In this document: positions 7,783-24,727 of the stretch, piece by piece
How positions within the stretch are numbered: position 1 is the stretch's first letter
How the letters are laid out: every line of letters starts with the position of its first letter
Assembly: GCF_913057115.1 (NCBI RefSeq)
Contig: NZ_CAJXNN010000001.1
Span: 118,441-150,440 of the forward strand
Direction: 5' to 3'
DNA: 32,000 nucleotides
From: an uncultured Roseovarius sp.
GTDB taxonomy: Bacteria > Pseudomonadota > Alphaproteobacteria > Rhodobacterales > Rhodobacteraceae
Made by a program: the position numbers and the translations under genes
Notes under the pieces: model-generated
Told to the model about the DNA's origin: nothing
Databases searched by the model: none
The model's input: only the letters and a program-made list of their open reading frames with translations

Positions 7783-7972
7783 GCGGTAGGGTGTCCTTGT
7801 CGTCTTGTTGTCTTTGCGGTGTCACGCGCCGGGCGGTGACTGTCAATGGCGCATAAGGGAAAGGCGGGGGAACACCCTGTCCGTTAGCGCTAACACACTT
7901 CAAAGTCCTTATTACGCATTTCACATCCCCATGCAACTGTCATAAACCCTGCGCAAAGGACATGACAGGCAC

Positions 7973-8713
7973 ATGACGTACACCCCGTTTTTCATCGAAG
8001 GGGCCGACCGCCCCGCGCGTTGGCTGATTACCTGTGACCACGCGGCCAATACCGTGCCGCCCTTCGTGGGCGGCGGAAGCCTTGGGTTGTCCGAGGCCGA
8101 TATGACCCGGCATATCGCCTATGACGTGGGCGCCAAGGGCTTGGCGCGGGGCTTGGGCGCGGCCTTGGATGCGCCGGTGATCGAGACGAATTTCTCGCGG
8201 CTCGTGATTGACCCGAACCGCGGCGAAGATGACCCGACGCTTTTGATGAAGCTCTATGACGGGACGATCATCCCGGCCAACCGGCATGCCGGGGCCGAGG
8301 AACTGGAGTTGCGGCTGAACCGCTGTTACCGGCCTTATCACACGGCCTTGGCCGAATTGGCCGCGCGGCGCGACGATACGATCATTGTCTCGATCCACAG
8401 CTTTACACCGCAGTTGCAAGGCCGCCCGCCCCGGCCTTGGCATGTGGGGGTTCTGTATGCCGCCGACGAGCGGTTGAGCCGACCCTTGATCAACCGGTTG
8501 CATCAGGAGCATGACCTGTGCATCGGGGAAAACCAGCCCTATGGCGGGCACCTTCCGGGTGACGCCATCGCGCGTCATGCGATTGCCTATCAGCGGCCCA
8601 ATGTCCTGATAGAATTGCGCAATGACCTGATCAGGGCGGAGGCGGACCAAGCAGCATGGGCCGAAAGGCTGGCCCCGCTTCTGGAAGAGGCGGCGGACCG
8701 CGCAGGAGTTTAA
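7973..8713 (+). CDS. N-formylglutamate amidohydrolase family protein
   Basis: 246-aa ORF. The pattern ITCDHAANTVP...SRLVIDPNRG...SIHSFTP is the FGase-family metal-binding signature as I remember it. Confidence 0.8.
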   Translation: MTYTPFFIEGADRPARWLITCDHAANTVPPFVGGGSLGLSEADMTRHIAYDVGAKGLARGLGAALDAPVIETNFSRLVIDPNRGEDDPTLLMKLYDGTIIPANRHAGAEELELRLNRCYRPYHTALAELAARRDDTIIVSIHSFTPQLQGRPPRPWHVGVLYAADERLSRPLINRLHQEHDLCIGENQPYGGHLPGDAIARHAIAYQRPNVLIELRNDLIRAEADQAAWAERLAPLLEEAADRAGV

Positions 8714-12499: not shown

Positions 12500-15211
12500 A
12501 TGTTGGGTATTGGAACCGTCGCCAAGAAGATCTTCGGCACCGCGAATGACCGCAAGATCAAGGCGACACGCCCTCTGGTCGCCAAGATCAACGCATTGGA
12601 ACCCGAATTCGAGGCCCTGAGCGATGAAGGGCTGATCGAAAAAACCGCCGAATTCAAGGCGCGGGTCGAGAACGGCGAGAGCCTTGATTCCATCCTGCCC
12701 GAAGCCTTTGCCAACTGCCGCGAGGGCGCGCGACGCGCCTTGGGCCTGCGGGCCTTCGATGTGCAGTTGATGGGCGGTATCTTCCTGCACCAAGGCAATA
12801 TTTCCGAAATGAAGACTGGCGAGGGCAAAACCCTTGTCGCCACCTTCCCCGCCTACCTCAATGCCCTGACCGGCAAGGGCGTGCATATCGTCACGGTCAA
12901 CGATTACCTTGCCCGCCGTGACGCCGACTGGATGAGCAAGGTCTATGGCGCCTTGGGCATGACCACCGGGGTGGTTTATCCGCAGCAGCCCGACGATGAA
13001 AAACAGCAGGCCTATGCCGCCGACATCACCTATGCGACCAACAACGAGCTGGGCTTTGATTACCTGCGCGACAACATGAAATCCTCGCTTGAGGAAATGA
13101 GTCAGCGCGGCCACCATTTTGCTATCGTCGACGAGGTGGACAGCATCCTGATCGACGAAGCACGGACCCCGTTGATCATTTCCGGCCCGGCGCAGGACCG
13201 CAGCGATCTCTATGTCGCCATCGACGCACTGATTCCCGAACTGACCGACGAGCATTACAGCATCGAAGAAAAATCCAAGACCGTGACCTTCACCGACGAG
13301 GGCAACGAATTCCTTGAAGAGCTTTTGCATTCCAAGGGTCTGCTGGACGAGGGACAGTCGCTTTACGACCCCGAAAGCACCACCATCGTGCACCACGTCA
13401 ACCAAGGGCTTCGGGCGCACAAGATGTTCCTGAAGGACCGTGATTACATCGTCCGCGATGGCGAGGTGATGCTGATCGACGAATTCACCGGCCGGATGAT
13501 GGCCGGGCGGCGTTTGTCAGAAGGCCTGCATCAGGCCATCGAGGCCAAGGAAGGCTGCGAGATCAAGCCCGAGAACGTCACGCTGGCGCAGGTGACCTTC
13601 CAGAACTATTTCCGCCTTTACGAAAAACTGTCGGGCATGACCGGCACTGCCTCGACCGAAGCCGAGGAATTCGCCGAGATTTATGGCCTTGGCGTGGTCG
13701 AAGTGCCCACCAACAAGCCCATCGCCCGAATTGACGAAGACGACGCGGTTTATCGCACCGCGCAGGAGAAATTCGACGCCATCGTCGACTCGATCCGCAA
13801 GGCGCATGAAAAGGGCCAGCCGATCCTTGTGGGGACCACCTCGATTGAAAAGTCTGAGGTGTTGAGCCAGCTTTTGACGCAGGCGAAAATCACGCACAAC
13901 GTGTTGAACGCCCGCCAGCATGAGCAGGAGGCGCAGATCGTCGCCGACGCCGGGAAGCTGGGCGCGGTGACCATCGCCACCAACATGGCCGGACGCGGCA
14001 CCGACATCAAACTGGGCGGGAACGTCGATTTCAAGATCATGCAGGCGCTGGAGGCCGACCCCGAGGGCGACCCCGAGGCAATCCGCGAAAAGATCGAGGC
14101 CGAACACGCCGCCGATGAACAGGCGGTTATCGAGGCCGGGGGCCTGTTCGTTCTGGCCACCGAACGCCACGAAAGCCGCCGCATCGACAACCAGCTGCGC
14201 GGCCGGTCGGGCCGTCAGGGCGACCCGGGGCGCTCGGCCTTCTTCCTGTCGCTGGATGATGACCTGATGCGCATCTTCGGCTCGGAACGCTTGGAAAAGG
14301 TGCTGTCCACGCTGGGCATGAAAGAGGGCGAGGCGATCGTTCATCCTTGGGTGAATAAATCGCTTGAGCGCGCACAGGCCAAGGTGGAAGGGCGCAACTT
14401 CGACATCCGCAAGCAGCTTCTGAAGTTCGACGACGTGATGAACGAGCAGCGCAAGGTGATCTTCACCCAGCGTCTGGACATCATGAAAGCCGAAGATCTT
14501 TCCGAAATCGTGCAGGACATGCGCGGCGAGGTGATCGACGATCTGGTCGAACAATACATGCCCCCCAAGACCTATGCCGACCAGTGGGATACCGAGGGCC
14601 TGCACGCGGCGATCATGGAACAGATGAACATGGATCTGCCGATTCAGGAGTGGGCCGAGGAAGAAGGCGTGGATGACGACGACATCGCCGACCGTATTGA
14701 AAGCGCCGCCGATGACATGATGGCGCAAAAGGCCGTCGCCTTCGGCCCGGACAACATGCGCTCCATCGAAAAGCAGATCCTGCTGCAAACGATAGATCAG
14801 AAATGGCGCGAGCACCTTCTGACGCTGGAGCATTTGCGCAGCGTCGTGGGTTTCCGGGGATACGCGCAGCGCGATCCGCTGAACGAATACAAGAACGAGG
14901 CCTTCCAACTGTTCGAATCGATGCTGGACAGCCTGCGCCAGGACGTGACCCAACGCCTGTCGCAAATCCGGCCCATGACCGAGGAAGAACAACAGGCCAT
15001 GTTGGCCCAGATGCAAGAACAGCGCGCCCAGATGGAGGAAGCCGCCAAGGCCCGCCACCCGGGCAGCAAGGTGGCCGAACCCGGCGGCGAAGCGGCTGCG
15101 CAAGGCTTCGATGAAAACGATCCTTCGACATGGGGCAACCCCGGCCGGAACGAGCCCTGCCCCTGCGGATCGGGCAAGAAATTCAAGCATTGCCACGGGC
15201 GTTTGGCTTAG
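12500..15211 (+). CDS. secA: Preprotein translocase ATPase SecA
   Basis: 903-aa ORF with a Walker A-like [42 protein letters not shown] and a C-terminal zinc finger [17 protein letters not shown]. The last 10 nt (15202-15211) are AT-richer and appear to be island-derived. Confidence 0.98.
15182..15201. repeat. attL core: left copy of the 20-bp direct repeat ttcaagcaYtgccacgggcg
   Basis: ttcaagcattgccacgggcg here versus ttcaagcactgccacgggcg at 24638-24657 (19/20). The base-composition switch occurs directly after this copy. Confidence 0.8.
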
Positions 15212-15264: not shown

Positions 15265-15316
15265 TTGTTAGGCAAAATAGGATTTTTGCTGTGGTGTCAG
15301 GCATTTGTTAGGCAAA
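15265..15316 (+). repeat. Two direct copies of ttgttaggcaaa (15265-15276 and 15305-15316), candidate integrase arm-type sites at attL
   Basis: Exact 12-mer repeated 40 bp apart. Related TTGTTAKGCA copies occur near attR (24560-24580). Confidence 0.45.
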
Positions 15317-16594
15317 GAAAACCCTGAATATGCTGAAAAGCTAATGGATGGAAAGGTGCTGTTGTGGACGCGCAATAGCATCTTTCAAGTGCGCTTATAC
15401 GCAGGCAATCGGCGCTACATTTACAAATCACTAAAAACACGAAACTTAGACGAAGCACGTGAAAAAGCTGTGCGTGCTTACTACGAGCTAGAGTTTCGCA
15501 AAGAGCAAAAGCTGCCAACACGGCAAAAGCGATTCAACGATGTAATCGACGAATACATTGCGATGCGTCAAAGCCAATATGAGCGAGGCACCCACAAGCA
15601 AAGCAACAAACAAAATCAACAACACAGAGGCGCTGATATGCTCCGGCAAATAAAGCGTGTGAGCAAATTTTGGCGTGAATATTGTGGTGGAAAGCAAGTC
15701 GACACAATCGACGACGCCTTGCTGCGCGACTATGTTAACTGGCGGCGCGATTACTACAGACGCATGCCTACACATGAAATGCCTAAAAATGCAAAGCTCA
15801 ACCCAGCCGACAAGACATTGGAATGGGAAACGACATTTGCGCTAACTTTGTTAAAATATGCCCATGAGCGGGGCTATCGAGGCAATAAACCGCTGCCAAA
15901 ATATCGTTACAAAGCCAGTCGTAATAAAACGCGTCCGGCTTTTACACTAGACGAGTATCGCAAGCTTTATAAAGGGTTGCGGCGCTGGATACATGAAGAG
16001 AAGAACAACGCAAAAAAGCGGTATGCGCGCGAGCTATTGCGCGATTATGTGCTGATACTGTCAAACAGTGGAATGCGCGTAGGTGAAGCTAACAATTTGC
16101 GCGAAAGCGATTTGGTGGAAATTACAGATGATAACGGACGCACGTTATATGGCTTCAATGTTGACGGCAAAACAGGCAAGCGTTTTGTCGTGCTGCGTTC
16201 CAACGGAAAACGCTATGTAGACAGGGTTTTAGAACGCAATAAGAAGTGGGCTGACAACTGGGAATTAGCATCAAAAAATGATGTAAAGCAGCATAATCGA
16301 CGTAATGCTGATCGTGGTGATTGGCTTTTTAAAATGGCTGATGGGAACAAAATCATCACGCTTATAGATCAGTTTAACAAAGTGCTTGAGCGCGAAGGCA
16401 TTACTTACAATCCAGACGGTGAAAAGTACACGCTATACAGTTTAAGGCATTTTTACGCAGTGCAGATGCTTAGGACTGGTAAGGTAAACGTGTTTGACAT
16501 TGCAAGAAACATGGGTACCAGCGTGCAAATTATTGAAAGTTATTACGGAAAGCACGCAACCAGTAGGTTGCTAGCCACACGATTGGGTGGCTAG
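15305..16594 (+). CDS. int: Tyrosine-type site-specific integrase
   Basis: 429-aa ORF (TTG at 15305; first in-frame ATG at 15344). The catalytic-domain signatures are SGMRVGEANNL (Arg I), YSLRHFYAVQ (box II R-H) and MGTSVQIIESYYGKH (catalytic Tyr). It sits immediately next to attL. Confidence 0.9.
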   Translation: MLGKENPEYAEKLMDGKVLLWTRNSIFQVRLYAGNRRYIYKSLKTRNLDEAREKAVRAYYELEFRKEQKLPTRQKRFNDVIDEYIAMRQSQYERGTHKQSNKQNQQHRGADMLRQIKRVSKFWREYCGGKQVDTIDDALLRDYVNWRRDYYRRMPTHEMPKNAKLNPADKTLEWETTFALTLLKYAHERGYRGNKPLPKYRYKASRNKTRPAFTLDEYRKLYKGLRRWIHEEKNNAKKRYARELLRDYVLILSNSGMRVGEANNLRESDLVEITDDNGRTLYGFNVDGKTGKRFVVLRSNGKRYVDRVLERNKKWADNWELASKNDVKQHNRRNADRGDWLFKMADGNKIITLIDQFNKVLEREGITYNPDGEKYTLYSLRHFYAVQMLRTGKVNVFDIARNMGTSVQIIESYYGKHATSRLLATRLGG

Positions 16595-16747
16595 GCTCGG
16601 GAAGCCAAGGCTTGGACCAAGTGATCCAATCCAGAAATAAATTAATAATCCGTAGGAAATTTATGCTCTGCTAAACAGAATTTTACTGACACCGCTTGTG
16701 CAGATGCTAATGTTGCTGAACACAATATTCAGCGGGTGAGAAGAGAG

Positions 16748-17944
16748 ATGTTAAAACATATTGATTGTTTCGCTGGAGTAGGCGGAGTCGCCACTGGATT
16801 TCATGCTGCTGGCATCTCAACTTGTCTAGCGATCGAGAAAGTGGACACATGCGCAGAGACATATTCTGCAAACCATCCCAATACCCCCTTGATAAAAGGT
16901 GATATCAGAGATGTCCGTGATGCTGAGATTCGGCAGCATGTCGAAGGTGACGTTGATGTTGTTACTGCGGGCATGCCGTGTGAAACTTTCAGCACTGCAG
17001 GCTCGTCAAGCCGCAGTTTCTACGATCATCGTCAAACTCTTTTTGAAGAGGCTATTAGAATAGCTGATACAGTTAATTCAAAATTTATCCTTTTTGAGAA
17101 TGTGCCAGGCTTCGCGAACAAAAAAGTTGCAAAAGACTCTTCAGAGCTTGTTATCGACTTATTGCGTAAAAGTTTGCAAGAACACGGCTATAACAACAAA
17201 ATCGAAATCGTATTGAACGCCAAGGACTATGGTGTCCCTCAAAGCCGACAGCGACTTTTTGTATTGGCGTCTAGAGAAAACGTTCAATTAACCGCACCGC
17301 ATGCATCAAATAATCGTGTTACGGTTGGCGAAGCTTTTGCTAATTTGCCACATGTCGACACAGCTGGACCAATCATTTCTGATGAATTTCTTCCAGTTAC
17401 AAACGATTATCTTTCATTATTGGCTAACCATAAGTTTTGGAATATGCCGAATGGTTCCAAGTGCACTTACCAAAAGTCTCCTAAGCATCGCCCCCATACC
17501 ATCAAACGATTCGAACTGATTCAAACGGGTGAAGGGCTCAAATCCCTTTTTGATCGGTTGCCGCAACATGAAGTTGAAAGACTGCAAAGTGAGCGGATTC
17601 TTCCTAAAAAGTGGTATATTCAACGTAATAGGCGTTTAAACCCCGCGGATGTTAGCCCGACGGTTACATCACATTGTATAGATGAACTTCTTCATCCAAC
17701 ACTCAACAGAGCAATAACTGTACGTGAAGCTGCGAGACTGCAAAGCTTTCCAGACTCTTACGATTTTATTGGTGGACCCGAAATTTGCCCGCATGTCTAT
17801 GAAACACAAGACAAATACGAGCAAATTGGTGATGCAGTTCCTCCTCTGATGGCTTATTCTTGGGCTGTCAAATTGAAGGAGTTGCTTAATGCCGGAAGAG
17901 GAGCGCCAAGAGCAAATTATAGCTCGATGTGTGGAGCTTTATGA
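16748..17944 (+). CDS. DNA (cytosine-5)-methyltransferase (Type II)
   Basis: Ordered C5-MTase motifs: I DCFAGVGG, IV GMPCETFS, VI ENVPGF, VIII QSRQRLF, IX TVREAARLQSFPD, X IGDAVPP. ATG at 16748, with an alternative GTG at 16736. Confidence 0.93.
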   Translation: MLKHIDCFAGVGGVATGFHAAGISTCLAIEKVDTCAETYSANHPNTPLIKGDIRDVRDAEIRQHVEGDVDVVTAGMPCETFSTAGSSSRSFYDHRQTLFEEAIRIADTVNSKFILFENVPGFANKKVAKDSSELVIDLLRKSLQEHGYNNKIEIVLNAKDYGVPQSRQRLFVLASRENVQLTAPHASNNRVTVGEAFANLPHVDTAGPIISDEFLPVTNDYLSLLANHKFWNMPNGSKCTYQKSPKHRPHTIKRFELIQTGEGLKSLFDRLPQHEVERLQSERILPKKWYIQRNRRLNPADVSPTVTSHCIDELLHPTLNRAITVREAARLQSFPDSYDFIGGPEICPHVYETQDKYEQIGDAVPPLMAYSWAVKLKELLNAGRGAPRANYSSMCGAL

Positions 17945-18728
17945 TAGCGAGTTTGCTGCGTGTGAGCGTGCTGGTGAATCTGAAACAGACGCACAACGTC
18001 ACGCAATATCGAAAAGCTTTGAACTTGCAGTCGGTGAATTTGGCGTAAAGGATGCGAGCTTTATATGGCGCGCAATAGACAGCGCTCATGTAAAAAGAAA
18101 ATCTGGAGCGCTCATTGAACCTGAAGTAATTGATGGTGTGCGAGCTGCCAGTCAAAGCTGGAATAAATCTAGTGGGCATGCTTTCGAGCAAAGTTTTTGT
18201 TCGGTAATGAATGAAAAATTGCACAATACCAATATGCGATTTTTGCTACAAAGAGAAATTTCCGCTTTAATCAAAAATCAGTGTCTTCTTAATAAGGAGC
18301 GTGATCTTGCCTCAATAAATGGCTGGAATGCGTCAAGTGTCTTCGATGTGTTTGTCGCCCAAAAAGAACCAAATGAAGAGCTCTTTGAAGTTTTTGGATG
18401 CGTTCAATGTAAAACCAGCATTCGGGATCGGGTAACAAGAGATCGCGAGCCAAGTACTCAAGCAATGAATTCTTTTTTTTGGTCCATAGCTGTGGTTATT
18501 GATGGGCATTTTCTAAAGCTACCAAAATTTGAGCACATGGTTAACGGTGGAAGTAACGACTATCCGAATAATGGCTGGCACGGCATGTACGCTTTTAGCA
18601 ACTGCTCGAATGTTGACAGAGTTTTTCTGCTAGAAGACGGATTGGAACCTTTAATAGAACACTCTAAAAAAGCGTACCGAGCTTTCAATTCAGAGCGTCA
18701 ATGGCTAGATGCTGATTGGCGCCCTTAA
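17889..18728 (+). CDS. Putative Type II restriction endonuclease (PD-(D/E)xK; possible CCGG-family relative)
   Basis: 279-aa ORF with a strong RBS (aaggag). Its start overlaps the methyltransferase 3' end by 56 nt. It carries SVFD153VFV ... VQ173CK175TSIR179D180R181 (nt 18405-18431), that is D...(Q)xK followed by K-x3-R-D-R. Confidence 0.65.
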   Translation: MPEEERQEQIIARCVELYDSEFAACERAGESETDAQRHAISKSFELAVGEFGVKDASFIWRAIDSAHVKRKSGALIEPEVIDGVRAASQSWNKSSGHAFEQSFCSVMNEKLHNTNMRFLLQREISALIKNQCLLNKERDLASINGWNASSVFDVFVAQKEPNEELFEVFGCVQCKTSIRDRVTRDREPSTQAMNSFFWSIAVVIDGHFLKLPKFEHMVNGGSNDYPNNGWHGMYAFSNCSNVDRVFLLEDGLEPLIEHSKKAYRAFNSERQWLDADWRP

Positions 18729-18798: not shown

Positions 18799-20079
18799 TT
18801 AGCTTAGCACAGCCTGAATTTTGTTGAGATTTTCTCGTATGCGTGTTGGCAGTTTGTCCCAATCTGCGTTGTCGGCGAACACTTGGTTGCAGGCTATTAT
18901 AGCTGCACGATGGTAAACGTATATGTTGTGATTGGTAAGCAAGCAGGCGCTGAGCTTGTCGAAAAAAGTCTGTGCAAACAGCCCGCGCTCCACATGCAAA
19001 TCATTGATGCTAAAGCGCTTACTAATCGGTGACTGAATATCCTCCAAATAGCGAACATCGTCTTGTTTTTTGTATTTGGGATGCTGTGGGAATGGCATGC
19101 TTGGGATGCGCCAGGTTTTAATATCACTCGTTAAGGCGGGCATTTGACAAATTTTTTCGTATTTACCTGCTGTTTGAAACGGTGAGCTGCTGTCGTAGCT
19201 GACTGTGATTTCTGTGCCGAGCAGCCGGCGAAGTTGTTTCTGAATTGCCGTGCAATAAACCGCATGTTCTGCGGGAGATAGCATCAGTATGTGCAACCAT
19301 TCTGCGTGATCAAGTTTTTGATCGTCCAGCAAACGTCGTATCCATTTCAAGATAGGATCAAGCCCGCTTTTTGTGTCGCCACCAAAAGCCCATCCTTCAA
19401 AATCAAAGTCTTTAACAGCGTGGTACCAAGCTTCACCTGTGCCGTTTCCAGCGTCTTGCAAGACATTGAGGTATTTTGCTTTGGCACCTGTTGCCTTGCC
19501 TCTGTTGTCAGCAAAGTAACGTAAGTTTTCCACACTTAGTTCAATCAGCTGTTCGGTGTTGAGGTTAATAAACGGTGAAGACTTTGCCTGTGGATTTGTA
19601 TGCACCCAAAGCGGCATATCCAGTGTCATCGCATAGTCACTGTTTGTATCAAGCCAGCGTAAAATATTGTCGCGTACGCTTCGCCGTGCAAGCCATTGGT
19701 GGTACACAGCGTTAGGCTGTTTGCTATACTTTTGCAAATCGCTGACAGCTTTCAGGCTTCCCATGCCAATTTGGAAGCCGCCACTGTCTCCTAAAACAAC
19801 AGTGTCTTTGCTGCGCCGTGCAACCATGTCTGTGGCAGGCAATGTAGCTTTTTCGAACTGCCCGGCGCTATAGAGCACATATTTGCAGTGCCACAGATTG
19901 TTGTTGGGATTCAAAAAATCCAAATCAGCAAGATTGCATCCTTGGGGTAAATTACCATCGCGCACAGACGCGACATCGCTGTAGGGTAAGTTGGCATAAC
20001 CGCGTTGGAGTGACGGCAAATAGATTGCATACCCTTCGTACTGAGCAGTTAGATTTTCACCGATTGAATGCACAGGCAT
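18799..20079 (-). CDS. tRNA-guanine transglycosylase superfamily protein, DpdA-like (putative DNA 7-deazaguanine transglycosylase)
   Basis: 426-aa ORF with colinear TGT-like motifs: VLGDSGGFQ (nt 19771-19788; cf. TDSGGFQ), TLDMP (cf. FDEC), GWAFGG (cf. GYAVGG), HILMLSPAEH (cf. YLMGVGKPED), YDSSSPFQTAGK (cf. FDCVxPTRxARxG), NHNIYVYH (cf. HNLxFY). No CxCxxC Zn cluster was seen. Its start overlaps the upstream stop (TAATG). Confidence 0.7.
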   Translation of the reverse strand: MPVHSIGENLTAQYEGYAIYLPSLQRGYANLPYSDVASVRDGNLPQGCNLADLDFLNPNNNLWHCKYVLYSAGQFEKATLPATDMVARRSKDTVVLGDSGGFQIGMGSLKAVSDLQKYSKQPNAVYHQWLARRSVRDNILRWLDTNSDYAMTLDMPLWVHTNPQAKSSPFINLNTEQLIELSVENLRYFADNRGKATGAKAKYLNVLQDAGNGTGEAWYHAVKDFDFEGWAFGGDTKSGLDPILKWIRRLLDDQKLDHAEWLHILMLSPAEHAVYCTAIQKQLRRLLGTEITVSYDSSSPFQTAGKYEKICQMPALTSDIKTWRIPSMPFPQHPKYKKQDDVRYLEDIQSPISKRFSINDLHVERGLFAQTFFDKLSACLLTNHNIYVYHRAAIIACNQVFADNADWDKLPTRIRENLNKIQAVLS

Positions 20080-21761
20080 TATGCTTGCTCAGGCAAATCT
20101 GTGTATTGCTCATAAGCAGGCAAATAGCTTTGATAGCGAGCCAAGTCTGTTTCGTATTCCAACATCATCCCACTAGCGTTCCCGCGCATAACGATGTCAT
20201 GCTTGTCTAGTGGCAGTGTCGCTATTGCGCTAAACAACAGCATGGCGTCTTTGGGGTAAAGATTGATGGTGGGAGTGCTGGTGCTGATTTTTGCTTGCGC
20301 CGCTTTGCCCAATTCAAACTGTTTTTGCTCTGAAAAGCTTTTGTTTTTGGCATCCCACCAGTAATCAAATCGCACACTACTTTCACTGAAATGCAGAGCG
20401 ATTTTGCGGCTTTGTGGTTTGTTGAAAAAGCTGCGTATACGCGTGATCCAGTGTTGTACGCAATTTGCGTCAAATTCCGCAAACCATTGAGCATTTGCTG
20501 TAACGCGCCAACTGCTTTTAAAGCGTGTTTCTGGATCAATCATCATACCCACTATGCTTTCCTCTGGCATTTCCTCGCAGTCGTAAAAGTAAATGCTGCG
20601 CTTGTGATGTGTCGCTTCGCTGTTGAGGTGCAAACTGTATCGGGTGAGTCGATCTGTTGAATTCTCAATCAGCCTATCTTTGGGCTCAGCAGTATAAAGC
20701 GAGAGCTTTTGGCTGTTTATCAATTCCCGTTCAATCCAGCTGCGATCAGAGCCCCGCAATACAAGTGAATTGCCGTCGTGCAGCTGCATGCGCTTGGGAA
20801 TTACATGAGTGACAGCAGTGGTTTTGTAAGGCGTTTTTGTAACCACGATGTCTTTTTGGGCTGGGCGCACTAATAATGTGGTATTGCAAGGGACATGCAC
20901 GGTTTTGCCGTGTCTATCCGTGCGCGTAACTGTGCTACTCAAGTCAAAGAAACGCTTGCGATATTTTTCTAGAGGTGCAGGTACAGTATGTGGCTGCAGT
21001 GCCTCTGCAATTAAGCGCAAGCTGGGCGTAACGCCAGCTCTGTCAATATCTGTGCAAGCAAGCAGCGCGGTATCAATCAAATCATCAGTGTAGTTACTGC
21101 CCACAACTTCCAGCTCGCCTGTTTCGTTGTTTCGCCGCGCCAGCATTACAACAAAGTCATCGCTGTTGGTGACGGCGGAAGCAAAGGCAGGGAGGCTTGC
21201 CTTGGGTTTTACGCTTTTGGCATGCTCCACTTTGTTGTTGAAAACTGCAGCGTTGCCAGTGCTTCCAGTTTTGCGTCCGCGTCCATCTTGTTCTTCAAAA
21301 TCAGCAGCTTCTTCCTCGTCAGCCAGCTCTTGCGCTGTCATACGCCTTTCACCGCGCAGCTCGCCCAATCCACCCATGTCGTGTATGTGATTGATCAGTG
21401 CTGTGCGGGCATCGTTGCTAAAAAGATGTGGTTTTTCAGCATAAGTCTCGTGCAACGCTAGTAGGGATTTGGACCAGTTGCTTATGGTGCTTGCGTGCTT
21501 TTTTACGTCCATTTGCCAAATCATACGTACCAAAGGGTAAAAGTTTGGCTGGTTGCTCGGCTTTCGCCGCGTGCGAATACCGCGTTCGTCGTAAAGCTGT
21601 TTTAAATAATCGCCCTGCTGCTCCGCAGCCCGCCACCACAAGTATGCATCGACTATGTTTTGGTACAGCTGATTTCTGCTGCTTTCATACGCAGCTGTTT
21701 GCGACTGCGCAGCTGCTTCAAGTTGCTGAAGCTGTCGATCCAAATCGTTGTTATTTGTCAT
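20079..21761 (-). CDS. Hypothetical 560-aa protein, translationally coupled partner of the DpdA-like gene
   Basis: Long uninterrupted ORF in AT-rich DNA. It has a coiled-coil-like N-terminus, an acidic linker (ELADEEEAADFEEQDG) and a beta-rich C-terminal two-thirds. I recognise no catalytic motif. Confidence 0.75.
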   Translation of the reverse strand: MTNNNDLDRQLQQLEAAAQSQTAAYESSRNQLYQNIVDAYLWWRAAEQQGDYLKQLYDERGIRTRRKPSNQPNFYPLVRMIWQMDVKKHASTISNWSKSLLALHETYAEKPHLFSNDARTALINHIHDMGGLGELRGERRMTAQELADEEEAADFEEQDGRGRKTGSTGNAAVFNNKVEHAKSVKPKASLPAFASAVTNSDDFVVMLARRNNETGELEVVGSNYTDDLIDTALLACTDIDRAGVTPSLRLIAEALQPHTVPAPLEKYRKRFFDLSSTVTRTDRHGKTVHVPCNTTLLVRPAQKDIVVTKTPYKTTAVTHVIPKRMQLHDGNSLVLRGSDRSWIERELINSQKLSLYTAEPKDRLIENSTDRLTRYSLHLNSEATHHKRSIYFYDCEEMPEESIVGMMIDPETRFKSSWRVTANAQWFAEFDANCVQHWITRIRSFFNKPQSRKIALHFSESSVRFDYWWDAKNKSFSEQKQFELGKAAQAKISTSTPTINLYPKDAMLLFSAIATLPLDKHDIVMRGNASGMMLEYETDLARYQSYLPAYEQYTDLPEQA

Positions 21762-21778
21762 TAGGGAGCCCGAAAAAT

Positions 21779-21801
21779 TTTACATCGAAAGGTGATGCAA
21801 G
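21779..21801. repeat. Candidate recombinase core site B (tttacatcg-aaagg-tgatgcaag)
   Basis: Its reverse complement cttgcatca-ccttt-cgatgtaaa matches site A (22532-22554) at 18/23 positions. It lies in the 42-nt gap between the recombinase stop and the 560-aa ORF start. Confidence 0.45.
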
Positions 21802-21803
21802 AG

Positions 21804-22379
21804 TTATCCTACAAGCTCCACAGCTGCCCGCAACTTTTTATCGTTTAATTCAATATAGCGTTGTGTGGTGTTGAGGTGCTTGTGGCGCGCGAGCGCCTGT
21901 ACAACACGCGCATTCAACCCCTTGTCTGCCAACTCAGTCACAAACTGCCGCCTGCCGCTGTGACTGCTCGCCCCATCAATGCCAGCAGCAGTGTAAAGCG
22001 TGTAAAATAGGTTCACCATCGTCTGCGCGCTAAAGCCGCCACCTTTTGCACTAAAAATCAGCGGTGCCTCAGGCTGCTGTAGGCGGCGCGGGTATTGTTT
22101 AGCATACCGAGTCAAAGCTTGCGCGGTGCGGCGGTTGATTAAAACTGTGCTGGTGCAGCTGCCTTTGGTTTGTGTCGCTTGCAGCAGCACGAACTCACGC
22201 ACAGCGCCTGTGCTTTCAAATACGTCACCAACGCGCAAAGCTGCTATCTCACATGCGCGCATACCAGCATAAAAGCTCAGCGCTACGGCTGTATGATTAC
22301 GTGTTGGATAGCGCCGACTGTTAATCACGGCTGACAGGCGTTTGAACTCTACTTTGTTGAGTAGTTTTGCTTGTTTCAT
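21804..22379 (-). CDS. Short (191-aa) tyrosine recombinase, catalytic domain only (FimB/FimE-sized)
   Basis: Carries YAGMRACEIAAL (Arg I), SSHSGRRQFVTE (H-x-x-R) and ARHKHLNTTQRYIE (His plus catalytic Tyr). There is a good RBS (gagga, 8 nt upstream) and no N-terminal arm- or core-binding domain. Confidence 0.85.
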   Translation of the reverse strand: MKQAKLLNKVEFKRLSAVINSRRYPTRNHTAVALSFYAGMRACEIAALRVGDVFESTGAVREFVLLQATQTKGSCTSTVLINRRTAQALTRYAKQYPRRLQQPEAPLIFSAKGGGFSAQTMVNLFYTLYTAAGIDGASSHSGRRQFVTELADKGLNARVVQALARHKHLNTTQRYIELNDKKLRAAVELVG

Positions 22380-22531: not shown

Positions 22532-22554
22532 CTTACATCGTTTTTCGATGTAAG
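22532..22554. repeat. Candidate recombinase core site A (cttacatcg-ttttt-cgatgtaag; perfect palindromic arms)
   Basis: Perfect 10-bp inverted repeat gcttacatcg (22531-22540) / cgatgtaagc (22546-22555) around a 5-nt spacer, about 150 bp upstream of the recombinase start. Confidence 0.5.
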
Positions 22555-22630: not shown

Positions 22631-22918
22631 ATGAACAAGCGAACAACTGACGCATTGCTTAAAGAAATGCGCCAACACATCAGGCGATTGCCGAAAGCAG
22701 AAAAAATTGAGCTGGCTGAAAAACTCCTGCAAATTGCTTCGACGGCAATAAATTGGCTGCGGGAAGACGACAAAGGTGGCACAACAGCTTCGCGCCGACG
22801 CAAGCTGCAAGGACGGGAAACCAAGCTGGATGCGAACAAACCTGTTTCGCCAGTAACTGTTGCTGAGCCGCATAAGCCAAAACCGATGAAATACAAAGGC
22901 AAGCACAGAGATGACTAA
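22631..22918 (+). CDS. Hypothetical protein (95 aa), basic C-terminus
   Basis: ATG at 22631 preceded by gaagggg. The product MNKRTTDALLKEMRQHIRRLPKAEKIELAEKLLQIA... looks helical and charged. Its stop overlaps the next start (ATGACTAA). Confidence 0.5.
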   Translation: MNKRTTDALLKEMRQHIRRLPKAEKIELAEKLLQIASTAINWLREDDKGGTTASRRRKLQGRETKLDANKPVSPVTVAEPHKPKPMKYKGKHRDD

Positions 22919-23252
22919 GTGCGCAGTAGTGCGTGTTTATGACGTGCTGTCCCAAAACGAGTTAGTGCATACAGCTGAAGACTTTGGTGTGAATTGGTGC
23001 GGCAAATGCAAGAGCTGGTATGCGGAGCGTAAACACGCTAGGCGCGATTTTGGCGTTGCAGCTGCTACAGCGTGCTATCGCGCTATTCACCATAAACTTG
23101 AGCAAGTGCGCAAAAGCAGACTTCGTATCGGCGCTGTGCTTGATGATGAAGTTGAAGCACTTGAAGCAGCACGTGATTTAGTGCAGCGCTATCTGCTTGA
23201 GCATCACAGCATCTCAGCTGTTTTGGTTGATGAAAAGCACGAGCTTGTTTGA
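22911..23252 (+). CDS. Hypothetical protein (113 aa) with a CxxC element
   Basis: Translationally coupled to the previous ORF. Contains NWCGKCKSWY and later ACYRAIHH. No family is recognised. Confidence 0.5.
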   Translation: MTKCAVVRVYDVLSQNELVHTAEDFGVNWCGKCKSWYAERKHARRDFGVAAATACYRAIHHKLEQVRKSRLRIGAVLDDEVEALEAARDLVQRYLLEHHSISAVLVDEKHELV

Positions 23253-23445: not shown

Positions 23446-23985
23446 TTAAGAAATGGGCTTAGTGCCATAGTTTGCTTTAACGAGCCGTCGCAAATATCGC
23501 ATTTGATCAAAATCGGATGCATTCATCGACACTGTATTTGTGTAGCTAAGCTGCGGGTTAAATGTGTCTTGTTTAAGCTGTCCATATTCATGCAGGCAAT
23601 ACACGCTAGCCGCGTGTTTGTTGCGTATAAGCTCAACTCTTGATGTTGCACAGCTTTCGTCAAAGCTGCTCCAAAGCGTCTTAAGTGTATTGCAGAAAGT
23701 TGTAGTGCCGCCAAAGCTTTTGAAGGCAACGTGAAAGTGTGTGTTAAAACCACTCTTTCCGTAGTGCTTAAACACAAAGCGTTCAATACGCCTTCCAAGC
23801 TTGCATTCTGTTTTCCCCAAAAACGTCCTGTCTGCTTTGTTCAAGAATACCCGCAAAACTTGCTCTGCTTGTGCATCGCTAATGTCGTAGCCATTCGCAA
23901 ATTTGAGCGTGGCAAACACGTCTACGTCAGAATTTCGTATCCAGTTTATGTATTGATTTTGTATGTCTTGATTGCACGCTAACAC
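23446..23985 (-). CDS. HUH-type rolling-circle replication initiator-like protein (179 aa)
   Basis: GTG start with GGAG 6 nt upstream. The three RCR motifs are colinear: I VFATLKF, II NTHFHVAF (HUH; nt 23731-23739), III ASVYCLHEY (Tyr). Confidence 0.55.
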   Translation of the reverse strand: MLACNQDIQNQYINWIRNSDVDVFATLKFANGYDISDAQAEQVLRVFLNKADRTFLGKTECKLGRRIERFVFKHYGKSGFNTHFHVAFKSFGGTTTFCNTLKTLWSSFDESCATSRVELIRNKHAASVYCLHEYGQLKQDTFNPQLSYTNTVSMNASDFDQMRYLRRLVKANYGTKPIS

Positions 23986-24109
23986 CGTTTACTCCGCTTG
24001 CTTTTATTTATTTATCCTTAGCGCGCTAAAGTGAAGTTTTTTGATTTTGATCGTCCAAGCTACTGCTAGAGCTTAATATTTTTTGAGCCGCTGAAATTTG
24101 GAGGACAAA

Positions 24110-24541
24110 ATGGCTTTATTAGACGAACTCAAGCTCACAACATACGAGCCGGGCGCATTCTCAAACCCCGTTTCTAATCGTCGGCACAAGTTCGCAGCAA
24201 AGATTGACGAGCAAATTAAGCTTGCTGTTGATCCAGATTATCAGCCTAAAAAGCTAATCTGGCGTGAAGATGCACACGGTAATAGGACGCGCGTTGAAAT
24301 GCCAAAACGTATTAAACCATGGTGGAGTCAAAGTCCGGACGGAACTGTGCTTTTGACATTGCGCTACGGCAGTAAAGCTTTGGAATTAGCTAAGGGTAAG
24401 AATGCTGTTGAAGTGTTGAGTAAAGAAGACGTGGAAGGAACGTTGCGTAAAATAAAACTGGCTGTTTTGGCTGGTGAATTTGATGCTCTGCTTGAAAAGC
24501 ACATAGTCAAAAAGAAACCGATAGAAGCAAATAAAAGCTGA
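24110..24541 (+). CDS. Conserved-looking hypothetical protein (143 aa)
   Basis: ATG at 24110 is preceded by ggagga, so the TTG at 24098 is unlikely. The product MALLDELKLTTYEP...PKRIKPWW...LTLRYGSKALELAKGKNAVEV... recalls small proteins I associate with mobile elements, but I cannot name the family with confidence. Confidence 0.6.
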   Translation: MALLDELKLTTYEPGAFSNPVSNRRHKFAAKIDEQIKLAVDPDYQPKKLIWREDAHGNRTRVEMPKRIKPWWSQSPDGTVLLTLRYGSKALELAKGKNAVEVLSKEDVEGTLRKIKLAVLAGEFDALLEKHIVKKKPIEANKS

Positions 24542-24637: not shown

Positions 24638-24657
24638 TTTCAAGCACTGCCACGGGC
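24638..24657. repeat. attR core: right copy of the 20-bp direct repeat
   Basis: ttcaagcactgccacgggcg. GC-rich host-like sequence resumes exactly here. Confidence 0.8.
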
Positions 24658-24667
24658 GGCTCGCCTA
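24638..24667 (+). other. Displaced native 3' end of secA (encodes ...FKHCHGRLA-stop)
   Basis: ttc aag cac tgc cac ggg cgg ctc gcc tag translates to FKHCHGRLA*, identical to the end of the intact secA ORF at 15182-15211 but with GC-rich synonymous codons. Confidence 0.75.
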
Positions 24668-24727
24668 GCGTGAGCCGACGGGCGGCGGCCTTCTGACCCG
24701 ACATTACAAGCCCTAAAGACTCCGCGG

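Follow-up and report, generated by a model that had tools for sequence, protein, structure and literature searches.

The window analysed here, a stretch of 32,000 nucleotides (nt) from an uncultured Roseovarius sp. (contig NZ_CAJXNN010000001.1, positions 118,441 to 150,440 of the forward strand), carries a small integrative element whose backbone includes two adjacent genes, one encoding a 426-amino-acid (aa) protein of the tRNA-guanine transglycosylase (TGT) superfamily and the other a 560-aa protein whose C-terminal half has the fold of a sliding clamp. Modification of DNA with 7-deazaguanine has so far been tied either to the bacterial transglycosylase DpdA (bDpdA) together with DpdB, or to the phage enzymes DpdA1-DpdA4. 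Judged by predicted folds, conserved residues and gene neighborhoods, the pair fits best as a DpdA-like writer that departs from the known ones in its scaffold, which has no zinc site, and in its helper, which is clamp-like. The full mechanism proposed for the pair, that of a clamp-assisted DNA guanine transglycosylase using deazaguanine precursors of the host, is given an even chance.

The transglycosylase-like protein and its clamp-like partner

Three co-directional open reading frames (ORFs) on the minus strand encode a tyrosine recombinase of 191 aa (positions 21804-22379), the clamp-like partner of 560 aa (20079-21761) and the DpdA-like protein of the TGT superfamily (18799-20079, 426 aa). 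Their coordinates and junctions are exactly those given in the initial annotation of this DNA, with a 42-nt spacer between the stop of the recombinase gene and the 560-aa start, and a 1-nt stop/start overlap (GCA-TAATG-CCT) between the 560-aa and 426-aa genes. The latter two are not chance ORFs, since a word-indexed search returned 631 homologs of the 426-aa protein and 100 homologs exist for the 560-aa protein. Both the 560-aa protein and the recombinase had been proposed as dedicated partners of the TGT-like protein. This holds for the 560-aa protein and fails for the recombinase, which lies elsewhere or on the opposite strand in relatives. Because the recombinase gene changes position and strand between element lineages in this way, the functional unit is the 560-aa/426-aa gene pair, and the three-gene operon is a local arrangement.

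The 426-aa protein had been described as an orphan, a label that does not survive an exhaustive profile search: 896 clusters (at 50% identity) are related to it at E<=1e-3, 280 of them at E<=1e-30, and at least 595 relatives lie on viral contigs. An AlphaFold2 model built with 38 homologs is a beta/alpha (TIM) barrel (pLDDT 91, pTM 0.91). When compared with the PDB using Foldseek, the only match at E<=1e-3 is the DNA preQ0 insertase DpdA (7ui4; E 1.4e-5, probability 1.0); generic TIM barrels appear from E>=0.06, at least three orders of magnitude weaker than DpdA, and canonical Tgt is not within the top 50 matches. The second-ranking match is Cap10 (9ntn_B), a TGT-like protein of type IV CBASS (cyclic-oligonucleotide-based antiphage signaling system), at E 0.036. 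This ranking, along with the tight coupling of the two genes, raises the idea that a TGT-fold enzyme conjugates deazaguanine to a protein, possibly the clamp-like partner, as a regulatory or defense switch. Such a role is considered quite improbable: the Cap10 match is not significant, no gene for a QueC-like Cap9 or a CD-NTase was found nearby with Pfam, NCBIfam or PADLOC, and in phage PA5oct, a carrier of a family member (see below), the phenotype is at the level of DNA (PMC12191111).

Sequence profiles lead to the same superfamily. A profile built from 70 diverse members of the family (A3) matches Tgt of Z. mobilis in 39 of its 42 PDB matches, with the motifs in register (DSGGfQ/DSGGYQ, tLDvP/AFDEC, NVlqG/GIQQG, eGWAfaG/DGYAVGG and nHNvy/EHNIAFY), and E. 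coli Tgt aligns to A3 in the identical register. Only three of the 70 A3 members match the Pfam TGT family (PF01702), all weakly (best 0.0069), and the 426-aa protein itself is below threshold. PDB sequence searches with the 426-aa protein (phmmer and a close-family profile) found nothing, and comparison of the family profile with the single sequences of phage 9g DpdA and E. coli Tgt by hhalign yielded only a local GWAFGG/GYAVGG match (probability 0.2% for 9g DpdA). Two members of the family (P0071 and P0086) are named 'flagellar hook protein FlgE' by the Joint Genome Institute (JGI), a name that finds no support here and looks like a misannotation.

All six TGT motifs quoted in the initial annotation are present in the 426-aa translation. 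Residues D98, S99, G101, H263 and D296 are invariant down to ~26% identity, and at least 90% of the 70 diverse members share G100, Q103 and D154, among others. In the model, D98, D154, Q208 (of NVLQ), G233-G234 (of GWAFGG), H263/L265 and D296 (of YDSSSP) lie at the C-terminal ends of strands. D98 (in DSGGFQ) and D154 (in TLDMP) align with the DSGGYQ and FDEC motifs of Tgt, which hold the general acid/base and the base-binding Asp. D296 stands at the end of a predicted strand (292-297) at the expected spacing, in a region to which no Tgt or DpdA alignment extends; it is the predicted nucleophile, equivalent to D280 of Tgt and D256 of DpdA, on the grounds of its invariance and position rather than of an alignment. 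Guanine exchange by DpdA requires D95 and D256, the base being bound by D130, H181 and G206-G207, and D95/F99, D130 and D256 are all needed in vitro (PMC10164549). By this comparison, D98, D154 and D296 of the 426-aa protein are predicted to correspond to D95, D130 and D256 of DpdA. With DpdA as its closest solved structure, the protein very probably belongs to the TGT superfamily, as first proposed, as a divergent, zinc-less member whose predicted catalytic constellation is intact.

The 560-aa protein has no match in Pfam, NCBIfam, PADLOC, PHROGs or a PDB sequence search, and it had been set down as lacking any placeable motif. Its AlphaFold2 model (pLDDT 82) nevertheless places half of it, since it consists of a helical N-terminal part and a beta-rich C-terminal part with a PCNA/sliding-clamp fold. 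The N-terminal, mostly helical domain (residues ~1-270; 20952-21761, minus strand) contains a disordered acidic linker (residues 139-166); it has no Pfam match, and its PDB profile search gave only chance-level matches to ribosomal proteins. The C-terminal half (residues ~275-555; 20097-20939, minus strand) has two tandem clamp domains per protomer. Foldseek returned 340 PDB matches for this half at E<=1e-3, with the top 50 all PCNA (target TM 0.52-0.61), and its matches in BFVD are viral PCNAs, beta clamps and uncharacterized phage proteins of 235-239 aa (target TM 0.64). A diverged homolog of DpdB or DndB, the identity that in the initial annotation would have made the system a known one, is ruled out, as is a ParB-like identity, by a fold that is helical and PCNA-like.

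The nature of this partner bears on the substrate. Tgt is the only family reached by the sequence profile, and the queuosine pool of the host would be equally usable by an enzyme acting on RNA, so that modification of a tRNA or other RNA of the element or the host, in the manner of Tgt or ArcTGT, has to be weighed. The nearest structure is, however, that of a DNA enzyme, canonical Tgt being outside the top 50, and the obligate partner has the fold of a DNA clamp, while the phage gene follows those for DNA polymerase B (PolB) and a clamp-like protein. The 426-aa protein has no zinc domain, its model shows no extra C-terminal domain, and there are no tRNA genes in the window. An RNA substrate is improbable on this evidence, and DNA is probably the substrate of the 426-aa enzyme.

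Relatives in bacterial elements and in phages

The bacterial context was drawn from the neighborhoods of divergent homologs and from 80 loci in species-representative genomes. Across these, the pair recurs in a small element of 7-10 kb, found mainly in Alpha- and Betaproteobacteria, that consists of a large integrase, DUF6641, a mini tyrosine recombinase and the clamp-like/TGT-like pair, often with DUF6626 and a ~200-aa HUH-like gene, and with variable cargo alongside (e.g., an MmeI-like enzyme in the Marivita element). The pair, which had been taken for cargo of the island, is thus conserved backbone of small integrative elements, and it is the adjoining restriction-modification (RM) genes that are variable cargo. 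All genome loci with an identity of at least 30% have the clamp-like gene directly against, or overlapping, the start of the TGT-like gene. Among integrative-element relatives, the most distant (in Rhizobiaceae, sphingomonads and Azospirillum; ~28% identity) have a neighbor of 500-900 aa that is often divergent, and in which the N-domain alone is detectably similar (iterated hidden Markov model (HMM) search; hhalign probability 91.6%, E 8e-7). The only genome loci with deazaguanine-synthesis genes are the four of phage type.

Near-full-length homologs with ~26% identity were recovered by tblastn from jumbo phages, namely PA5oct and its relatives, Sinorhizobium phage Phosso and a Vibrio phage. 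The gene order in PA5oct is PolB, gp170, gp169, gp168, gp167, in which gp168 is the TGT-like family member (A3 E 8e-138), gp170 (L092 5930-6676) is a 248-aa protein of phrog_12062 that carries a structural-protein annotation, and gp167 bears a weak likeness to glycosyltransferases; beyond gp167, on the downstream side, come an epimerase, a phosphoribosyltransferase (PRTase) and the QueE-like gp162. In Phosso the TGT-like and clamp-like genes lie before primase and DnaB. The phage layout also occurs in loci binned to metagenome-assembled genomes (MAGs) of Bacteroidota, Planctomycetota and archaea. Two marine contigs (30 kb and 357 kb) carry PolB, sugar-nucleotide genes, a 240-aa gene, a TGT-like gene (A3 E 1e-128 to 1e-135) and a PRTase gene, as well as GTP cyclohydrolase I and a QueE-like gene.

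The relatives on viral contigs in IMG/VR are all 27-34% identical to the 426-aa protein, and synteny was counted in 80 of these loci. All 80 contain the TGT-like gene, 78 the 240-aa clamp-like gene and 76 PolB, and of the 77 loci whose upstream sequence is long enough, 70 have the 240-aa gene directly upstream of the TGT-like gene. FolE was counted in 41 of the 80, a QueE-like gene in 24 and a PRTase gene in 30, and 44 of the 80 have at least one of FolE, QueE and QueD in their flanks. The company of preQ0-synthesis genes that the initial annotation held to be usual for phage DpdA is found here as well, in phage relatives that adjoin FolE and QueE. Neither the N-domain nor a partner of the 560-aa type occurs in any of the 80 viral loci. 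The 240-aa clamp-like family has 1,519 members, and its profile gave only chance-level matches to ribosomal proteins in the PDB. Aligned by hhalign with the clamp-like half of the 560-aa family, it reaches E 2e-4 and a probability of 46% over 149 columns (controls 0.3-1.6%), making a relationship between the two suggestive rather than proven.

Published work on PA5oct is consistent with a modified base. Its DNA resists five restriction enzymes, which the excerpted text of PMC12191111 interprets as modified G in GA/GG; the same excerpts report QueE (gp162) and PTPS (6-pyruvoyl-tetrahydropterin synthase; gp230) and name no transglycosylase. A system for deazaguanine synthesis and incorporation is mentioned for PA5oct by Iyer et al. 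2021. The phage members of the 426-aa family are candidate writers of deazaguanine in phage DNA. Because sugar-type and oxygenase genes surround the phage TGT-like gene, there are also hints that the inserted base could be further decorated, possibly with a sugar: glycosyltransferase-like and epimerase/dehydratase genes lie near it in phage-type loci (L092 8635-12341; L053 12642-14887; L095 7238-10004), as do genes for a phosphomannomutase, a cytidylyltransferase and a 2OG-Fe(II) oxygenase.

In most viral loci, the gene that separates PolB from the TGT-like gene is a member of phrog_12062, which is annotated 'structural protein' or 'unknown function' and has 1,519 homologs (also L053, L054, L065, L068, L069, L088, L095 and L097). 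Jumbo phages with a clamp loader yet no detectable PCNA-like clamp are described by Iyer et al. 2021, and phrog_12062 may be an unrecognized sliding clamp of the phages that carry it.

This setting feeds the strongest rival of a base-exchange function, strongest because the pair is element backbone and lies next to the replisome in phages. The pair could be a module for replication or maintenance of the element, in which a clamp-like processivity or loading factor works with a TGT-fold replisome factor that exchanges no bases, whether a glycosylase or nicking initiator acting through a covalent Asp-C1' intermediate or a non-catalytic scaffold. In phages the pair stands inside the replication module (after PolB in 76 of 80 loci, and before primase/DnaB in Phosso), and close relatives of the element carry a 179-aa HUH-like gene. 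Synteny with replication genes does not discriminate, however, as known DpdA genes adjoin them too; moreover, the full TGT set (two catalytic Asp, the base-binding Asp, the Gln and the Gly loop) is conserved, which a scaffold would not need, and FolE, QueE or QueD accompany 44 of 80 phage loci. A replication module is regarded as unlikely. An effector of the DNA glycosylase type, which would act in defense or anti-defense by removing or replacing the bases of foreign DNA and not by marking its own, would suit an element with variable defense cargo (type II and MmeI-like RM), and endonuclease IV is among the weak TIM-barrel matches of the model. Such an effector is hardly probable: the pair has no PADLOC match, and in lytic phages the family members sit with base-synthesis genes, which argues for writing over erasing.

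The element at the 3' end of secA

The pair in the window lies on an island with a GC content of 43-50%, versus ~62% in the flanks. It is bounded by an attL-like direct repeat formed by the final 30 nt of secA with its stop codon (15182-15211, plus strand) and an attR-like repeat that is a displaced, diverged copy of the secA 3' end (24639-24668, plus strand); the two (repeat family D5) are 30 nt long, 83% identical and 9,457 bp apart. Bounded by this 30-nt repeat of the last codons of secA, the low-GC island is an integrative element that occupies the 3' end of the gene. Other assemblies carry the identical island. Beside the attL-like repeat lies the large tyrosine integrase (15305-16594, plus strand; Pfam Phage_integrase 4.8e-6), homologs of which stand at the element ends in most related loci. 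In another lineage, a related element lies directly downstream of secA (L008, 16569-20700; L009, 11099-15230), with a different internal gene order and additional PIN and RNase_T genes. Since its integrase matches that of the window at E 1e-171 and adjoins secA, this integrase clade appears, on sequence similarity and location, to be specific for the secA 3' end. In two further loci (L012, 2506-16388; L027, 4684-21244), a second integrase and a second mini-recombinase follow a few kb past the pair, and these duplicate copies may represent tandem or nested elements at one site. Excised circular forms, sought as terminal overlaps in 17 whole contigs, were not found.

The cargo is a C5-cytosine methyltransferase of Dcm type (16736-17944, plus strand) and a BsaWI-like endonuclease (17889-18728, plus strand), both identified with Pfam and PADLOC as components of a type II RM system. 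The two genes overlap by 56 nt (17889-17944) and are convergent with the TGT-like gene, with ~70 nt between the stops. The RM pair is missing from most related elements. As an ordinary type II system that is complete in itself and belongs to the variable cargo, it is not the cognate restriction arm of the DpdA-like pair.

The remaining genes belong to the backbone. The mini-recombinase (21804-22379, minus strand), which consists of the catalytic domain only and is of FimB/Xer-like size, matches Pfam Phage_integrase (1.7e-21, 77.2 bits versus a cutoff of 27.1) and the phrog_216 integrase (1.3e-33), and the catalytic-type segments GMRACE, HSGRRQF and HKHLNTTQRY are readable in its translation. 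Its membership in a Gamma-mobile-trio was considered and rejected, the last 50 residues alone matching GmtY (30.6 bits against a cutoff of 340). DUF6626 (22911-23252, plus strand) and DUF6641 (24098-24541, plus strand) were identified with Pfam and co-occur with the pair across loci. Between them, a 179-aa ORF with an HFHVAF HUH-like motif in its translation (23446-23985, minus strand) also co-occurs with the pair and is detected in closer element relatives only; it has a weak Pfam match to REP_ORF2-G2P (E 0.013) and is possibly a small Rep-like protein of the rolling-circle kind. As the initial annotation had noted, preQ0-synthesis genes and DpdB/DpdC are absent: among the 10 island ORFs there is no match to FolE, QueC, QueD, QueE, DpdB or DpdC (Pfam, NCBIfam, PADLOC). 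PADLOC and NCBIfam match no island ORF apart from the RM and recombinase genes, and a Pfam scan found no clamp-loader or polymerase gene on the island.

A palindrome, TTACATCG-N5-CGATGTAA (two mismatches), lies 19 nt upstream of the 560-aa start (21780-21800), followed by AATTTTT on the coding strand, and a second exact copy (22533-22553) lies upstream of the mini-recombinase gene, where it overlaps a promoter-like -35 of the minus strand. These are two sites in the window versus 0.07 expected by chance. The palindrome is kept in five relatives (L012, L013, L015, L016 and L032) at 10-30 nt upstream of the clamp-gene start, with a symmetric CG>CA/TG variant (L012 has copies at 7805-7825 and 8225-8245), and could be an attenuator hairpin or an operator for a dimer. 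The inverted repeat I2 was considered as the flanks of an invertible-promoter switch, which finds no support, the arms of I2 being the palindrome copies, which in relatives lie between the recombinase and clamp genes and do not flank a segment. A scan for promoters and terminators gave no signal above shuffle expectation.

Proposed mechanism and comparison with known systems

In the mechanism proposed for the pair, D296 would act as nucleophile on C1' of a DNA deoxyguanosine and D98 as general acid/base, in a double displacement of the Tgt/DpdA type, with the base held by D154, Q208 and the G233-G234 loop. A 7-deazaguanine derivative would take the place of guanine and would presumably come from the preQ0/preQ1 pool of the host queuosine pathway, because the element has no synthesis genes of its own. 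The Salmonella dpd island likewise lacks its own synthesis genes and relies on the host pool. The PCNA-like C-terminal half of the 560-aa protein would encircle or ride DNA and tether the 426-aa enzyme, thereby doing for it what the ParB-like ATPase DpdB does for bacterial DpdA, and the N-domain might serve in loading, targeting or regulation. The element would gain by marking or protecting its own DNA and that of the host. What is inferred in this scheme is that DNA is the substrate, which base is inserted, that the 560-aa and 426-aa proteins interact physically, that a ring forms, and how the element benefits.

A broader scenario, held tentatively, is that the family is an unrecognized DpdA/TGT branch of clamp-tethered DNA transglycosylases in phages that was captured by integrative elements. 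In large phages the enzyme would ride a clamp-like protein beside PolB and write 7-deazaguanine, possibly glycosylated, into newly replicated DNA. The pair of clamp and enzyme would have been taken up by small integrative elements of Alpha- and Betaproteobacteria, in which the clamp acquired a new N-terminal domain by fusion and in which host preQ0 would serve to mark bacterial chromosomes with deazaguanine, with no linked restriction genes.

Several results weigh against a clamp-assisted transglycosylase. The 426-aa protein has no match in Pfam (E<=0.1), NCBIfam, PADLOC or PHROGs; its superposition on DpdA 7ui4 is loose (TM 0.38, root-mean-square deviation 7.9 A, 14% identity); and the alignment of A3 with Tgt is borderline (E ~0.05) and stops short of the nucleophile Asp. 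The structural zinc site, which is conserved in Tgt and DpdA (PMC10164549), is missing: there is no CxCxxC in the sequence, as was noticed at the outset, and no Cys is conserved in the family, so that the only remnant is the His of NHN, which aligns weakly with the EHN of Tgt. Homology between the clamp half and the phage 240-aa family is only moderate (46%), and the 240-aa protein of phages may be nothing more than the replicative clamp that serves PolB. Finally, no deazaguanine-synthesis genes were found in the island or in any integrative-element relative.

If the proposal is true, DNA transglycosylation extends to a zinc-less scaffold with a clamp-type helper that replaces an ATPase, in a family whose ~900 clusters at 50% identity and viral-contig relatives bear no annotation. 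It would supply a candidate (gp168 in PA5oct) for the unnamed transglycosylase of PA5oct-like therapeutic jumbo phages and of many marine phages, and a function for phrog_12062. It would also predict that many genomes of Rhodobacterales, Sphingomonadales, Rhizobiales and Burkholderiales bear a deazaguanine mark, so far undetected, which a small mobile element has put there, with a bearing on restriction barriers, sequencing artefacts and phage-host conflict. Several hosts of the element are cultured (Roseinatronobacter bogoriensis DSM 18756, Marivita cryptomonadis CL-SK44, Roseobacter sp. AzwK-3b and Novosphingobium arvoryzae KCTC 32422) and PA5oct is genetically tractable, so that the hypothesis is directly testable.

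Among known systems, Cap10 resembles the 426-aa protein in being a TGT-fold protein outside tRNA modification and is set apart by its non-significant match and by the absence here of a Cap9 or CD-NTase context. Tgt (PF01702) shares motifs and spacing (DSGGFQ, LD.., ..QG, G.A.GG, ..L.G, D and.HN), whereas the 426-aa protein is below the Pfam threshold, is without CxCxxC...H, and has a partner and context that point to DNA. Sliding clamps, including viral PCNAs and phage clamps, have the two-domain protomer fold seen in the C-terminal half of the 560-aa protein. The latter differs in having no sequence similarity to clamp families, in its fusion to a 270-aa helical N-domain, and in being paired with a predicted base-exchange enzyme rather than a polymerase.

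With phage DpdA1 and DpdA3, the phage members described here have in common their proximity to FolE and QueE-like genes beside replication genes. The differences from DpdA1-DpdA4 are the lack of a match of the 426-aa protein to Pfam TGT or DUF6610 (PF20314, DpdA4), the size of the family members (426-550 aa versus 317 aa for 9g DpdA), and the preceding 240-aa clamp-like gene. The family may coincide with DpdA3, a gene for which was not found in the first 50 kb of Campylobacter phage CP220 (HMM and motif). Searches by tblastn with three family members recovered no phage named as a DpdA carrier in the cited papers, and no Cellulophaga, Campylobacter or Flavobacterium phages. The classification of DpdA into bDpdA and DpdA1-DpdA4 mentions neither Pseudomonas nor jumbo phages nor a clamp (PMC10516641), and the literature examined held nothing relevant that links DpdA to a sliding clamp or a PCNA-like protein to a transglycosylase, nor on DUF6641 or DpdA5/DpdA-like proteins. 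In phage 9g (L010 2006-3960), the validated DpdA-type gp03 adjoins the annotated replicative clamp gp02 and the DNA polymerase gp01, and this adjacency of gp02 and gp03 echoes the clamp/transglycosylase neighborhood here.

The bacterial Dpd system of Salmonella Montevideo (7UI4; PMC10164549) differs in several respects. DpdA sequence models do not detect the 426-aa protein, in which the zinc site is lacking; in place of the ParB/DndB-like ATPase DpdB, its partner joins a PCNA-like clamp to an N-domain of a new kind; and the island is without DpdC and the DpdD-K restriction genes, the pair being part of the backbone of a 7-10-kb element. The likeness is nonetheless the closest found, as DpdA is the only significant structural match, with a TIM barrel of the TGT fold in which D95/F99, D130, the Gly loop and D256 have predicted equivalents in the 426-aa protein, and in both systems a second protein that engages DNA, as predicted here from its fold, is encoded alongside.

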